A stretch of 64,000 nt of DNA, taken from assembly GCA_963741605.1 (NCBI GenBank), contig CAVUII010000002.1, forward strand, positions 732,662-796,661. Reading direction: 5' to 3'. Positions 2,590 to 8,952 of the stretch are shown here, one piece after another. A program made the translations under genes and the position numbers. The notes beneath the pieces are model-generated. The model was given only the letters and a program-made list of their open reading frames with translations, had not been told where the DNA came from and made no database searches. The stretch comes from an uncultured Alphaproteobacteria bacterium (lineage in GTDB: Bacteria > Pseudomonadota > Alphaproteobacteria > Sphingomonadales > Sphingomonadaceae). The number at the start of each line of letters is the position of its first letter. Position 1 is the stretch's first letter.

Positions 2590-3141
2590 ATGGCAAGCAA
2601 ATCTGAAACAAGTGTATCCAAGGCTTCCGCTAAGGCTGCGCCCGTAAAGGCAGAAAAGCTGGTTACGAAAATCGTTTCCGTCAATGAACAACCTGAAACA
2701 CAAGGAACATCTAAAATGACCGAAGCAACAACGAAAGCCACCGAATTCTTCGCCGACATCCGCGAAAAGGCCGGTGAAGCTGCTGAAAAAGGCAAGAAAT
2801 TCGCAACCGACGCCACCGAGTTCAACAAAGCGAACATCGAAGCACTGGTCGAAGCTGGCAAGCTTGTCGCCAAGGGCGCGCAAGATCTGGGCAAGACCAA
2901 CCTGGAATATGCCAAAAAGAATTTCGAAGAAGTCCAAGCCGCAGTGAAAGAAGTCACGGCCGTAAAATCGCCTACCGATTTCGTAAAGCTTCAGGGCGAA
3001 TTCGCGCGCAAGGGTTTTGATATTGCAGTTGCACAGGGTTCGAAGAACACCGAAGCGATGGTTAAGCTGATGGGCGATATGTTCCAGCCGATCTCGAACC
3101 GCATTGCGGTTGCAACCGACTATTTCAAGAAAGCTGCATAA
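2590..3141 (+). CDS. phaP: Phasin family protein (start could be 2578, 2590 or 2716)
   Basis: Ala/Lys-rich helical protein with KANIEALVEAG and VKSPTDFVKLQGEFARK; adjacent to clpS. Confidence 0.8.
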   Translation: MASKSETSVSKASAKAAPVKAEKLVTKIVSVNEQPETQGTSKMTEATTKATEFFADIREKAGEAAEKGKKFATDATEFNKANIEALVEAGKLVAKGAQDLGKTNLEYAKKNFEEVQAAVKEVTAVKSPTDFVKLQGEFARKGFDIAVAQGSKNTEAMVKLMGDMFQPISNRIAVATDYFKKAA

Positions 3142-3278
3142 GCTTTCCTGATATTGCGTCGGCGCGTCAGCGCGCCTGCCCTCTCTCCTCCTCTCCTCCC
3201 TGATGGCAGGAAGGCCCGACGAGCCGGCGCAAATATGAAAGAACCGATCTTCCCAAAAGGAAGGTCGGTTTTTTCTTT
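3142..3278 (+). ncRNA. Candidate 3'UTR-derived sRNA with CU-rich anti-Shine-Dalgarno loop
   Basis: Stem (CC)TGCC/GGCA(GG) encloses CTCTCTCCTCCTCTCCTCCC, followed by an intrinsic terminator. Confidence 0.4.
3241..3278 (+). terminator. Rho-independent terminator
   Basis: AACCGATCTTCC-CAAAA-GGAAGGTCGGTT followed by TTTTCTTT. Confidence 0.8.
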
Positions 3279-5615: not shown

Positions 5616-6218
5616 ATGACCAAAAACCTAGAATTCCTGTTCGATTTCGGCGGACCTAACAGCTATCTCGCGCACAAAATGCTGCCCGATCTGGCCGCGC
5701 GAACCGGCGCGCAGATTACCTACACACCCATCCTGCTTGGCGGCCTGTTCAAACTCACTAACAACCAAGCGCCATTGATGCGTTACGCCGACACCCCGGC
5801 AAAGCGGAATTACGAGATGCTTGAGTTTGACCGCTTTGTGAAAGCGCAACAGTTGCCGTTCACAATGAACCCGCATTTCCCGATCAACTCGCTTTATTTG
5901 ATGCGCGGCGCGGTGGCGGCGCAACATCTGGGTTGCTTCATGCCCTATGTCGAGGCGATCATGGCCGCGATGTGGGAGGATGGAGCAAACACCGGCGACC
6001 TCGCGGTGGTAGCCGGTGTGCTAGACAAAGCGGGCCTAGACAGCGCCGCTATCCTGACCAAAGCCGAAGACGCGGAAGTCAAAGCCGAACTCGCCACCAA
6101 CACCGAAGCCGCCGCCGCGCGCGGAGCCTTTGGCGTTCCGACTTTCTTTGTAGGTGACGAGATGTTCTGGGGCAAGGAGCGGTTGGCGCAGGTTGAGGTA
6201 GCCTTGACCGAATCATAA
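5616..6218 (+). CDS. 2-hydroxychromene-2-carboxylate isomerase / DsbA-like (GST kappa) protein
   Basis: LEFLFDFGGPNSYLA and GAFGVPTFFV...FWGKERL. Confidence 0.88.
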   Translation: MTKNLEFLFDFGGPNSYLAHKMLPDLAARTGAQITYTPILLGGLFKLTNNQAPLMRYADTPAKRNYEMLEFDRFVKAQQLPFTMNPHFPINSLYLMRGAVAAQHLGCFMPYVEAIMAAMWEDGANTGDLAVVAGVLDKAGLDSAAILTKAEDAEVKAELATNTEAAAARGAFGVPTFFVGDEMFWGKERLAQVEVALTES

Positions 6219-6254: not shown

Positions 6255-7538
6255 ATGGACAAAATCATCATTCGCGGCGGTAACCGCCTTAACGGCAAAA
6301 TTCCCATTTCCGGAGCCAAGAACAGTGCGTTGACGCTGCTGCCCTGTGCGCTGTTGACTGACGAGCCGTTGACGCTGCGTAATTTGCCGCGTTTGGCGGA
6401 TATTGACGGGTTCCAGCATTTGATGAACCAGTTCGGTATTTCCACCACCATCGCCGGAAGCCGTCCCGAAGATTTCGGGCGGGTGATGACGTTGGAGGCG
6501 ACGCGGATTACCTCGTCGGTCGCCCCCTATGAACTGGTGCGCAAAATGCGGGCATCGATTTTGGTGCTGGGACCGATGCTGGCGCGGATGGGCGAGGCGA
6601 CCGTTTCGCTGCCCGGCGGCTGTGCGATTGGCAACCGGCCTATCGATTTGCACTTGAAAGCGTTGGAAGCCATTGGTGCGGAGATTGAGCTGGCGTCGGG
6701 CTATGTAAAGGCGATTGCCCCCAAGGGCGGCTTGCCCGGTGGCAGCTATACCTTCCCCGTGGTGTCGGTCGGCGCGACCGAGAATGTCTTGATGGCCGCT
6801 GTCCTCGCCAAGGGTACCAGCGTGATCCACAATGCGGCGCGCGAACCCGAAATTGTCGATCTGTGCAATATGCTGGTCGCGATGGGCGCGGAGATTGAGG
6901 GCATTGGTTCCTCCGACCTGACCATCCACGGCAAAGACCGGCTGCACGGCGCAACCTATCGCGTGATGTCTGACCGGATTGAGGCGGGCAGCTATGCTTG
7001 CGCGGTTGCCACGACGGGCGGTGATGTTGAGCTGGTCGGCGCGAACGAACCGGAAATGCAGGCGACGGTCGATGCGTTGCGGTCCGCAGGCGTCACAGTT
7101 GAGGCCGTCAAAGGCGGCCTGCGTGTGGCATCGGACGGCAAGCTGCAACCGCTGACCATCTCTACATCACCCTATCCCGGTTTTGCCACCGATATGCAGG
7201 CGCAATTCATGGCGATGCTGTGTATGGCCGAAGGGGCCAGCGTGTTGACCGAAACCATCTTCGAAAACCGCTATATGCACGTGCCCGAACTCAACCGCAT
7301 GGGCGCGCATATCGAAACCAAAGGCCGCACCGCGATTGTCCACGGGGTAAAGGGCATGACCGGCGCACCGGTGATGGCAACCGATTTGCGCGCTTCGATG
7401 AGCCTGATTATTGCCGGACTGGTCGCCGATGGCCAAACCGAAGTCAGCCGCATCTATCACCTAGATCGCGGTTATGAGCGGCTGGAAGAAAAGCTGCAAT
7501 TGGTCGGTGCCGATGTGGAGCGTGTTGGGGCGGATTGA
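6255..7538 (+). CDS. murA: UDP-N-acetylglucosamine 1-carboxyvinyltransferase
   Basis: [31 protein letters not shown]. Confidence 0.98.
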
Positions 7539-7563
7539 CAAAGTCAATAATTTTAGCTATCAA
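7535..7563 (+). promoter_or_regulatory. Candidate sigma70 promoter facing the small ORF 7675-7767 convergently
   Basis: TTGACA-17 nt-TATCAA overlapping the murA stop. Confidence 0.4.
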
Positions 7564-7674
7564 AGCGGCGCTAAAGGCAAGGATATCCTTGTTGATATGG
7601 CCCTCAATCGCGGTAACGGTTGGGGGCCAATTATTTGGAGAGGGCAAGCGGTAACCCGCCCCCTCCGCCTGCAT

Positions 7675-7767
7675 TTACTTGTCGCGTGATAGCTCAACAA
7701 TCTTGATTACAAGAGTTGCAAAGCCGATCATCACGCCAAGCAGAATACAGACTTCTGCTAAAGTCAC
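7675..7767 (-). CDS. 30-aa hydrophobic peptide MTLAEVCILLGVMIGFATLVIKIVELSRDK; candidate type I toxin
   Basis: AAGGAG 8 nt before GTG; one transmembrane-like segment and charged C-terminus; too short for the ORF track. Confidence 0.6.
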   Translation of the reverse strand: MTLAEVCILLGVMIGFATLVIKIVELSRDK

Positions 7768-7879
7768 GAATATTTCTCCTTATCGATATGCAGCTTTATT
7801 GCTGCATCAGTGGTTTAGGAGGGAATTATTTTGTATGTAAGAAAAATCTACAGGCACCAAAGTGAACCGTGGAATTTAA

Positions 7880-8125
7880 CTATGGGTTCTGCGCCACCAA
7901 CCACAACCTGATCGCCCCAGCCAACCCCGGCGGCGTCGCTGATTTAATCCGTTCAGCATCGATTTCGGCAACCAGATTGTTCACCGCTTGCCCGCGCGTA
8001 TCTGCGGCGCGTTTCAGCATGTCCCAGAACAATGGCTCCAGACTGATCGAAGTCTGGTGGCCATTGATTGTAACCGACCGTTTAACGGGAGGGTGGTAGG
8101 GTGTGGCTTTGCTCACGCGATCCAC
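7880..8125 (-). CDS. Ribbon-helix-helix domain protein (RHH_4-like)
   Basis: KRSVTINGHQTSISLEPLFWDML...LAGAIRLW. Confidence 0.85.
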   Translation of the reverse strand: MDRVSKATPYHPPVKRSVTINGHQTSISLEPLFWDMLKRAADTRGQAVNNLVAEIDAERIKSATPPGLAGAIRLWLVAQNP

Positions 8126-8139
8126 CTAACACCCCAATT

Positions 8140-8207
8140 CGTCATCCTGAACTTGTTTCAGGATAACGAGGGGCGGTGCGTTGTGCTGAAACAAGTTCAG
8201 CATGACG
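8140..8207. repeat. REP doublet (GTCATCCTGAACTTGTTTCAG family)
   Basis: 22-bp inverted arms 8140-8161 and 8186-8207, 21/22 complementary, between two minus-strand genes. Confidence 0.85.
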
Positions 8208-8232
8208 ATGGGTTGGAGAAAAGCGCGCCCCC

Positions 8233-8952
8233 TCAATACATATGCTGCCCGCCATTGATCGACAAAGTCGATCCGGTGATGAAGGCCGCATTGTCGCTGG
8301 TGAGGAATTCCACCCCGCGCGCAATTTCTTCGGGTTGCCCCAGCCGCCCGACCGGGATTTGCGCGACGATTTTTTCCATCACATTATCAGGAATCGTCGA
8401 GAGCATTTCAGTGGCGATATAGCCCGGCGCAATGGCATTGGCGGTAACGCCAAACTTCGCGCCTTCAGCGGCCAAAGATTTGGTAAAACCATGGATACCC
8501 GATTTGGCGGCGGCATAATTGACTTGCCCGATTTGCCCGCCCTGGCCGTTGACCGAGCCAACATTCACGATCCGCCCCCAGCGGCGTTCGCGCATGCCAG
8601 GATAGGTGGCCTTTGCCATGTTGAAACAGCCGGTTAAATCAACGCGGATGACTTCGTCCCATTGTTCAAAGCTCATTTTCACCATCGTCGCGTCGCGGGT
8701 GATCCCGGCATTGTTCACCATGATGTCGATCGGGCCGAATTCGGCTTCGATGGCCGCGCAACTATCCATGCATTGTTGATGATTACCAACATCCCATTTG
8801 CGAACGGCAATTCCGGTACGTTCGGAAAATTCCTTGGCCGCAGCATCATTGCCGCCATAATTTGCGACAACAAACCGTCCTTTTTCTTTAAGTTTCAGGC
8901 TGATCGCCTCACCAATACCGCGTGTGCCGCCAGTTACTACTGCTATCCGCAT
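8233..8952 (-). CDS. phbB: Acetoacetyl-CoA reductase
   Basis: VTGGTRGIG, NNAGITRD, GQVNYAAAKSGIHGFTK. Confidence 0.92.
   Translation of the reverse strand: MRIAVVTGGTRGIGEAISLKLKEKGRFVVANYGGNDAAAKEFSERTGIAVRKWDVGNHQQCMDSCAAIEAEFGPIDIMVNNAGITRDATMVKMSFEQWDEVIRVDLTGCFNMAKATYPGMRERRWGRIVNVGSVNGQGGQIGQVNYAAAKSGIHGFTKSLAAEGAKFGVTANAIAPGYIATEMLSTIPDNVMEKIVAQIPVGRLGQPEEIARGVEFLTSDNAAFITGSTLSINGGQHMY

Follow-up and report, generated by a model that had tools for sequence, protein, structure and literature searches.

To our knowledge, toxin-antitoxin (TA) systems belonging to type I have been described hardly anywhere except in enterobacteria, a small number of other Gram-negative bacteria and the Firmicutes, and their genes are notoriously hard to find because they are tiny. 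According to the T1TAdb paper, the families in which the antisense RNA lies 3' of the toxin mRNA are all Gram-positive (PMC8594479), and Fst/RNAII and SprA1/SprA1as alone combine the absence of overlap with the toxin open reading frame (ORF) and an interaction outside the overlapping region (T1TAdb, PMC8594479). In the par locus of plasmid pAD1, which encodes Fst/RNAII, the promoters converge, complementary terminator stem-loops start the interaction and the toxin mRNA carries a 5' stem-loop (PMC7472228), while direct repeats let RNA II cover both the Shine-Dalgarno (SD) sequence and the GUG start codon (PMC7472228). Here we describe a module beside murA in a 64,000-nucleotide stretch of DNA from an uncultured member of the Sphingomonadaceae (contig CAVUII010000002.1, positions 732,662 to 796,661; the whole stretch is referred to as the window), which encodes a 30-residue membrane peptide and, from a convergent promoter, a predicted antisense RNA. 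The most likely reading of this module, and one that we regard as probable, is a new type I TA family with regulation of the par/SprA1 kind.

A preliminary description of the locus had proposed a type I TA system from an ORF behind a strong AAGGAG, an ATGCAGC/GCTGCAT hairpin before it, two 3' hairpins sharing GCGGTAAC, a 14-base-pair palindrome, and a TTGACA-17-TATCAA promoter that faces the gene from the murA stop codon. Each of these elements is present in the window. The ORF is found again in at least 121 further loci, the three hairpins covary across the family, and the promoter recurs as TTGAAA-17-TATnnn. The TA proposal itself, a membrane peptide with a predicted convergent antisense RNA, gains strong comparative support, whereas the mechanism attached to it, SD sequestration combined with an antisense RNA overlapping the 3' end in the style of TxpA/RatA or BsrG/SR4, does not: the conserved and co-evolving feature is instead the complementarity of the predicted antisense 5' tail to the SD and start codon. 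The features of the module are given below in window coordinates, where H1 and H2 are the hairpins of the toxin 3' untranslated region (UTR), a prime marks the complementary strand, and family counts refer to 81 non-redundant modules (less than 85% mutual identity) drawn from the 122 loci collected, the window included.

7675 to 7767, minus strand: peptide ORF, the predicted toxin, with one transmembrane helix and a charged C-terminal tail; open in 81 of 81 family loci
7776 to 7781, minus strand: SD sequence AAGGAG, 8 nucleotides before the GTG; SD-like core at most 20 nucleotides upstream in 76 of 81 loci
7788 to 7807, minus strand: 5' hairpin of the toxin mRNA, ATGCAGC-AATAAA-GCTGCAT, with the predicted transcription start at its base
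7637 to 7666, minus strand: hairpin H1 of the toxin 3' UTR, loop GTTACCGC, selected to fold on the toxin strand
7598 to 7629, plus strand: hairpin H2', with loop GCGGTAAC and with ATTATTTGG after it; probably terminates both the antisense RNA and murA, and has its complement, H2, in the toxin 3' UTR
7535 to 7563, plus strand: antisense RNA promoter TTGACA-17-TATCAA, its -35 element overlapping the murA stop codon
7569 to 7599, plus strand: predicted antisense RNA, 5' tail, able to pair in trans with toxin positions -21 to +12 (SD and GTG); duplex -29.0 kcal/mol
7569 to 7638, plus strand: predicted antisense (antitoxin) RNA, short form of about 70 nucleotides, placed by promoter position, H2 strand asymmetry and the tail after H2'
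7596 to 7809, minus strand: predicted toxin mRNA of about 210 nucleotides, comprising 5' hairpin, SD, ORF, H1 and H2; fold -93.2 kcal/mol, z = -7.07
7812 to 7860, minus strand: predicted toxin promoter region, which holds CCCTCCT at 7817-7823; candidate hexamers TTACAT-17-TAAACC and TTGGTG-17-CATACA

The peptide gene and its family

The ORF starts with GTG at 7767-7765, 8 nucleotides 3' of the AAGGAG at 7781-7776, and runs through 30 codons to a TAA at 7677-7675. Its product, MTLAEVCILLGVMIGFATLVIKIVELSRDK, begins with a short polar stretch, continues as a single strongly hydrophobic helix and ends in a charged tail (grand average of hydropathy 1.36), and the region forms a local trough in GC content (0.40-0.49 vs about 0.57 in the surroundings). 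Searches of Pfam, NCBIfam, PHROGs, PADLOC and the PDB gave no significant match for the peptide. A phmmer search of 1.8 billion representative proteins returned six matches, four of them exactly 30 amino acids long, and a profile search, with an alignment headed by a 40-residue mis-called family member as query, returned 487 protein clusters, of which the 120 listed are mostly about 30 residues long and devoid of Pfam domains. In UniRef a few family members are called 'Holin-like toxin', a name assigned automatically.

Homologues that preserve the ORF number in the hundreds. The tblastn search of the peptide that had been suggested as a check yielded at least three full-length copies among plasmids, all from Sphingomonadales: one between mobF and traG on pRW412b of Sphingopyxis granuli, one beside parB and an antirestriction gene on a Novosphingobium plasmid, and a third on an 853-kb Sphingomonas replicon. 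With a consensus-like peptide as query, tblastn gave no match among plasmids or phages, probably an effect of low-complexity filtering, and a blastn search with the pRW412b module (L001) returned only itself. We also scanned one genome per species with a degenerate DNA pattern comprising Cys7 plus FATL[IV]x[KE][IVM][VI]E, which gave at least 119 stretches; all of these carry the module except one chance match in Sporomusa (L021), and among the matches listed nearly all come from Sphingomonas, Sphingobium, Novosphingobium, Erythrobacter, Allosphingosinicella, Stakelama or broadly labelled metagenome-assembled genomes. One 2.9-kb contig labelled Arthrobacter sp. (L111) bears a typical sphingomonad module and is probably an assembly contaminant.

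Diverged as these loci are (no other member of the 81-locus set exceeds 57% identity to the window copy), their coding features are constant. The start codon lies exactly six codons before the invariant Cys in 120 of the 121 further loci collected, the exception being an ATT in L081, and the product measures 29-30 residues in 85 of 92 distinct sequences. The family consensus, MxxADLCLxLGVLxAFATLILKVVEVxRxK, contains neither Pro nor Trp; its conserved residues are Cys7, Phe16-Ala17-Thr18, Lys22 and Glu25. Throughout the 81 loci the reading frame is open, with entropies of 0.86, 0.27 and 1.29 at the three codon positions, and dN/dS is 0.20 over the ORF and 0.33 on the codons that the search pattern leaves free. 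By these substitution patterns the predicted family ORF is coding and under purifying selection, and on comparative grounds the peptide gene beside murA is a member of a real, large and unannotated Sphingomonadales family, far beyond what chance would produce.

A long ORF on the other strand (window 7679-7840, plus strand; annotated so in L003) was considered as the real gene and rejected: the start codon and SD are conserved on the minus strand only, and it is the minus-strand frame that the entropy pattern matches. That the antisense frame stays open in 79 of 81 loci has a compositional cause, TAx and CAx codons being rare in a hydrophobic peptide. The hypothetical protein that the plasmid record L003 places at 2893-3156 on its minus strand, opposite the peptide ORF, is probably a mis-call of this kind.

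Conserved hairpins and the predicted antisense RNA

Laid side by side, the loci share one order of elements: 5' hairpin, SD, ORF, H1, a short A-rich spacer, H2, a repeat of the SD/start region and a promoter on the opposite strand. The 5' hairpin, which in the window occupies 7807-7788 and sits immediately before the SD, shows compensatory changes at all six of its base pairs in the family. A pairing between its loop (CAAU) and the H1-H2 spacer (AUUG) was considered as a 5'-3' lock; both are conserved, and hence offer no covariation. The two GC-rich 3' hairpins have a loop stretch in common, which reads GTTACCGC on the minus strand; on the plus strand GCGGTAAC stands at 7610-7617 and 7648-7655, as the loops of the hairpins 7598-7629 and 7637-7666 respectively. 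In H1 and H2 together compensatory changes occur at 18 of 18 pairs, with 96.8% of cells paired vs 76.9% in column shuffles and at most 50% in slid controls, and 246 cells changed on both sides vs 69 in the shuffles.

A hairpin tolerates G.U pairs only on the strand on which it folds, since they become A.C mismatches on the opposite strand. Read on the sense strand, the 5' hairpin has 39 G.U vs 4 A.C and H1 has 85 G.U vs 1 A.C, while H2 reverses the pattern with 1 G.U vs 24 A.C. Folding energies agree in direction: toxin-strand RNA gives the more stable H1 in 61 of 70 loci (Wilcoxon p ~1e-10) and antisense RNA the more stable H2, likewise in 61 of 70 (Wilcoxon p ~1e-11), with window values of -16.3 sense vs -10.8 antisense kcal/mol for H1 and -15.8 sense vs -22.5 antisense kcal/mol for H2. 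The G.U/A.C asymmetry shows that, of the predicted transcripts, H1 folds in the toxin mRNA and H2 in the antisense RNA. The bias of H2 holds also at L002, a locus whose record has no convergent gene annotated downstream, and thus is not merely the mark of a neighbouring gene's terminator. This strand signature is the strongest indirect evidence for an antisense RNA, and suggests one composed of a 5' tail, H2' and a moderately U-rich tail (ATTATTTGG in the window).

Within each locus the loops of the two hairpins are matched. In each of the 70 aligned loci H1 and H2 carry the same loop hexamer on differing stems, and the stretch shared by the two loops averages 7.3 nucleotides within a locus vs 4.1 between loci. 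Between loci the hexamer varies, with at least 14 variants that include CGGCAA, CTGCAA, CTGACA, CTGGCA, CTAGCA, TTGCCG and TTGCAG; the GTTACC of the window is unique in the set. Simple complementarity in cis does not demand that the H1 loop equal the H2 loop, and we therefore read the H1 loop as a probable trans target, kept matched by selection, such that a single antisense loop would contact both loops of the toxin mRNA.

The promoter from which this RNA would be transcribed consists in the window of TTGACA at 7535-7540, a 17-nucleotide spacer and TATCAA at 7558-7563, with the murA TGA (7536-7538) inside the -35 element. It was passed over by our promoter scan because the scan demands a T at position 6 of the -10 hexamer; the same promoter and terminator scan flagged the 7598-7629 hairpin as terminator-like on the plus strand. 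The TTGAAA-17-TATnnn form is present in 72 of 81 loci, and the edge of its -10 element lies a median of 109 nucleotides from the toxin stop codon (111 in the window). Beyond H2, the toxin strand carries a downstream copy of the toxin's SD/start region; because of this repeat, an RNA from the convergent promoter would begin with the complement of the SD and start codon. The complementary stretch is about 35 nucleotides long in the family, starts a median of 5 nucleotides (3-7) after the -10 element, and covers about -21 to +14 of the toxin mRNA. The perfect 14-base-pair palindrome CAAGGATATCCTTG at 7578-7591, which had been noticed as a separate feature, is simply part of this anti-SD tail.

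Duplex energies were computed for the -22 to +15 region of every toxin against the antisense of every locus's stretch past H2, which makes 81 x 81 combinations. Cognate duplexes average -38.5 kcal/mol, as against -23.7 (sd 5.5) for non-cognate and -22.7 for shuffled ones; for 46 toxins the cognate antisense is the strongest of all 81 partners, and for 63 it is in the top three. In the window, the toxin's own partner, at -29.0 kcal/mol, ranks first of the 81. In genomes with two copies the pairs are orthogonal, with cognate energies of -36 to -45 vs crossed energies of -19 to -26 kcal/mol. This comparison shows that the complementarity of the predicted tail co-evolves with the toxin SD/start region.

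The same observations could be explained with no functional antisense RNA at all, if the hairpins were ordinary terminators of murA and of the peptide gene and the SD/start copy a relic of duplication. H2' is indeed terminator-like on the murA strand, a convergent gene ends right at the module in about 60% of loci, and no stranded antisense transcript was seen in the RNA runs, all of which consist of unstranded contigs. A relic, however, would neither keep co-evolving with the SD/start region across 81 diverged loci nor sit a constant 3-7 nucleotides past a conserved TTGAAA-17-TAT promoter, and ordinary terminators leave aside both the antisense-strand G.U signature of H2 at L002, with its lack of an annotated convergent gene, and the covariation of the H1 and H2 loops within each locus. 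We hold this explanation to be highly improbable. The predicted antisense RNA may also exist in a longer form that reaches H1', to about 7675.

Toxin mRNA, genomic contexts and proposed mechanism

The toxin promoter is weaker and less canonical than the antisense one. In the largest class of loci a CATGAT-like -10 element ends about 43 nucleotides before the start codon, and for this reason we place the toxin transcription start at the base of the 5' hairpin. This placement bears on the CCCTCCT of the window, to which the preliminary description had given a regulatory role: the motif would silence the SD from within the leader, and the antisense RNA would act solely through its 3' overlap, leading to degradation as in TxpA/RatA or BsrG/SR4. 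If transcribed, CCCTCCT (7823-7817, minus strand) does pair with AGGAG, as a 5-base-pair helix, in the minimum free energy fold of the window leader (-16.9 kcal/mol, z = -3.1), and the two RNAs are complementary over H2, and also over H1 if the antisense RNA is long. The nearest relative, represented by two metagenome contigs (L123/L124) with the gene order SDR, RHH_4, (YjeF_N), peptide, murA, nevertheless has ACTGCCG in place of CCCTCCT, although it is about 90% identical across the module and all three hairpins are preserved in it (H1 with a compensatory double change), as are the tail and the promoter, which there reads TTGACA-17-TATGAG. No anti-SD equivalent was found in the 80 other loci, the family geometry starts transcription at the 5' hairpin, downstream of CCCTCCT, where RNA contigs of another copy also start (see below), and the complementarity that co-evolves lies at the SD/start region, outside the overlap. 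Such a mechanism is very unlikely in our judgement; given the family promoter geometry, CCCTCCT may rather lie in the spacer of the toxin promoter, upstream of the transcription start.

The RNA data come from runs available as assembled contigs without strand. For the copy of Sphingomonas aurantiaca MA101b (L090), phyllosphere metatranscriptome contigs span 5971-6178, 5980-6181 and 5982-6187, a fourth starts at 5979, and depth is zero at 5884-5967. In this locus the predicted -10 element, CATGAT, occupies 5961-5966, the 5' hairpin 5973-5990 and the ORF 6011-6103, and H2 ends at 6178. The unstranded contigs fit a discrete toxin mRNA of about 208 nucleotides running from the predicted start through both hairpins. 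At 5800-5865 of the same locus the phyllosphere metatranscriptomes show an RNA end with a depth in the thousands, which matches the 5' end of a divergent gene for a PNPOx-like 'general stress protein'; a PNPOx-like gene of the same kind also flanks the module in L002. For the window sequence itself, the runs of study P3 gave patchy depth of 3-6x with contigs that break near the murA stop codon, probably through strain variation, and no conclusion was drawn from them or from runs X27 and X28 at L077.

The modules occupy many different chromosomal sites, as seen from 90 neighbour clusters of which 58 are singletons. Most copies are chromosomal; others are found on conjugative or large plasmids, in transfer or leading-type regions. 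One site recurs in many Sphingomonas genomes, between the PNPOx-like general stress gene and a thiolase gene. In 38 of the 122 collected loci (L079, L090 and L024, for example) the convergent thiolase gene (...GGGMGAAGLFEVL*) ends right at the -35 element of the antisense promoter, as murA does in the window, and read-through from such a housekeeping gene would produce RNA of the antitoxin sense. Decaying copies were also found: L062, L015 and L058 have lost the 5' arm of H1 and the stop codon, and their ORF extends to 38-46 residues, and L081 has the ATT start codon mentioned above. The sole match in the viral collection is an IMG/VR contig (L127) with a complete module at about 2200-2300 (loops CGGCAA), flanked by a tape-measure-like gene and the gene that follows it in a cluster resembling gene transfer agents (GTA) or phage tails.

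These contexts bear on whether the peptide is a toxin. As the main alternative, the same RNA architecture could gate the synthesis of a non-toxic small membrane protein with a physiological role, such as a modulator of a membrane complex or a stress-response peptide. Such a role would suit the predominance of chromosomal copies, the one conserved PNPOx-like/thiolase site in many Sphingomonas genomes, an mRNA detectable in environmental metatranscriptomes, and the conservation of Cys7, Phe16-Ala17-Thr18, Lys22 and Glu25 beyond the apparent need of a generic membrane-disrupting helix. It accords poorly with the wide variation of contexts, in which no conserved protein-coding partner gene appears, with plasmid copies in transfer or leading-type regions, with multiple orthogonal paralogues in one genome and with the existence of decayed copies; a dedicated repressor RNA over the SD and start codon is, moreover, a hallmark of type I toxins (PMC8594479, PMC7472228). 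We consider a non-toxic peptide unlikely. Plasmid copies, many insertion sites, orthogonal paralogues, decayed copies and the copy in a GTA/phage-tail-like cluster favour a TA-like selfish or defence-type element.

Directly upstream of the window module, at 7880-8125 on the minus strand, lies a gene for an 81-residue ribbon-helix-helix protein (PF13467 RHH_4, E = 9e-25), which is syntenic with the SDR gene in the nearest relative; it is probably outside the module, because in that relative a YjeF_N gene separates it from the peptide. In run X69, which represents a near-identical environmental strain, there are 17 differences in 7903-8133 (the RHH_4 gene) and one (at 7819) in 7533-7902, so that the module is either under tighter constraint than this neighbour or recently exchanged. 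Between the RHH_4 and SDR genes, at 8135-8209, stands a near-perfect inverted repeat of about 70 nucleotides (-47.5 kcal/mol, z = -5.85), for which an Rfam search gave spurious miRNA matches only. It reaches 100-1250x depth in four environmental runs vs 3-6x in its flanks, with many different flanking sequences attached, and by these signs is a multi-copy element resembling repetitive extragenic palindromes or miniature inverted-repeat transposable elements (REP/MITE-like).

For the type I TA family that we consider probable, we propose the following mechanism. The weak minus-strand promoter would give an mRNA of about 210 nucleotides with 5' hairpin, SD, 30-codon ORF, H1 and H2, and the stronger convergent plus-strand promoter at the murA stop codon an antisense RNA of about 70 nucleotides, made up of a single-stranded 5' tail and H2', the latter serving also as terminator. 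Contact would begin with the H2' loop kissing the toxin-mRNA loops of H1 and H2, which are identical; the antisense 5' tail would then pair with -21 to +12 and block ribosome binding, and the pairing probably also triggers cleavage of the tail-mRNA duplex. Peptide would be made only once the antisense RNA runs out, and would then be expected to damage the membrane.

Two features looked for in type I systems generally are found here: a small (<60 residues) hydrophobic ORF with its own ribosome-binding site that is conserved as coding and, on sequence evidence, an adjacent small-RNA gene with extended complementarity to the toxin mRNA. What we infer is the antisense transcript itself, the order in which the two RNAs make their contacts, and that the peptide is toxic. 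Several observations weigh against the TA reading. The peptide falls below threshold for every known toxin family searched, and the apparent protein conservation is inflated by the search pattern, in which 11 residues were fixed; dN/dS on the unfixed codons is the correction for this. On the toxin strand both 3' hairpins lack a U-tract, and the stretch that follows H2' is no more than moderately U-rich, which makes the RNA ends uncertain. Among the RNA runs, all of them unstranded contigs, there is no antisense transcript of known strand, and at L090 the region of the antisense 5' tail (6179-6207) is mostly uncovered, so that the small RNA was there either not captured (at about 70 nucleotides it may be lost in such libraries) or scarce.

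A further proposal is more tentative, and we regard it as possible rather than probable: that the modules form an undescribed, order-wide alphaproteobacterial type I TA family which makes independent use of the 'Gram-positive' par/SprA1 design and adds a programmable specificity code. If this is true, a single antitoxin loop has to fit a pair of identical toxin-mRNA loops, the loop variants (at least 14) with their matching SD/start tails prevent cross-talk between paralogues in one cell, and the antitoxin gene is typically docked on a housekeeping gene at its 3' end, murA in the window and thiolase at other loci, and read-through from that gene also supplies antitoxin-sense RNA. The family would plainly show different phyla using one regulatory design, whether convergent or shared. 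Its hundreds of diverged natural copies are enough to read rules of RNA-RNA interaction from covariation alone, and they hold candidate orthogonal RNA-RNA pairs usable as regulatory parts. Annotation pipelines now in use overlook the gene or place it on the wrong strand, and cultivable models for the chromosomal function of type I systems in environmental bacteria are at hand in Sphingomonas aurantiaca, the Leaf isolates and Sphingopyxis granuli pRW412b.

Comparison with known type I systems

In the literature searched, whose coverage is incomplete and gives no proof of novelty, no type I system is described for Sphingomonadales or specifically for Alphaproteobacteria, and Rfam searches gave no relevant match at E <= 10 (window 7000-8400) and none at E <= 1 (L090 5400-6400). 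The gammaproteobacterial systems Hok/Sok, Ldr/Rdl, TisB/IstR-1, Zor/Orz and Ibs/Sib, to which the module gave no sequence or Rfam match, likewise pair a small membrane peptide with repression by an antisense or partly complementary small RNA; in these, however, the toxin mRNA has the small RNA at its 5' end or upstream of it, or else over the ORF (PMC8594479). TxpA/RatA and the Hol_Tox family (PF16935, 'putative holin-like toxin') are closer in that a small single-helix peptide is accompanied by a convergent antisense RNA on the 3' side. Over the ...MIAFATL... stretch, 4 of 35 family members match Hol_Tox weakly (best E = 0.03, 14 bits vs a cut-off of 23.3), and the window peptide gave no Hol_Tox match. 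Whereas RatA overlaps the toxin ORF (PMC8594479), the predicted sphingomonad antisense RNA would stop past H2', or no later than the stop codon, and would act on the SD and start codon. The link to TxpA and Hol_Tox is thus at best marginal.

SprA1/SprA1as (PepA1) of Staphylococcus aureus shares with the module an antisense RNA on the 3' side which leaves the ORF free and, in the predicted geometry, acts at the translation initiation region (PMC8594479). The peptides are unrelated in sequence (no family or PDB match), and the RNA structures and the host phylum differ, so that the resemblance is one of mechanism only.

The other close counterpart is par (Fst/RNAII) of pAD1 in Enterococcus faecalis, together with its relatives in the Firmicutes. 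Both have convergent promoters, complementary 3' stem-loops and a direct repeat that covers the SD and start codon and is read in opposite directions (PMC7472228); both have a 5' stem-loop on the toxin mRNA and a peptide of about 30 residues with a hydrophobic helix and a charged C-terminal tail; and both exist as plasmid and chromosomal copies (PMC7472228, PMC8594479). The loop-loop kissing that we propose would be analogous to the first contact of par RNA I and RNA II (PMC7472228). The sphingomonad peptide has neither the PXXXG(C) motif nor the conserved Trp, and no Fst family appears among its Pfam matches at E <= 1-10. In place of DRa plus DRb the module has one repeat of about 35 nucleotides, and in place of one shared bidirectional terminator it has two strand-specialised hairpins, whose loop sequence is duplicated within each locus and varied between loci; by eye, the loop variants listed show no consistent YUNR U-turn motif. 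The host belongs to a high-GC alphaproteobacterial order, whereas the architecture is listed for Gram-positive bacteria only (PMC8594479). The lack of the motif, of the Trp and of a match to an Fst model, the two strand-specialised hairpins and the single long repeat are the reasons for which we do not count the module as a member of the par family. As predicted from its sequence, the sphingomonad module works like par on every testable point, yet it is a system that stands outside the par family.

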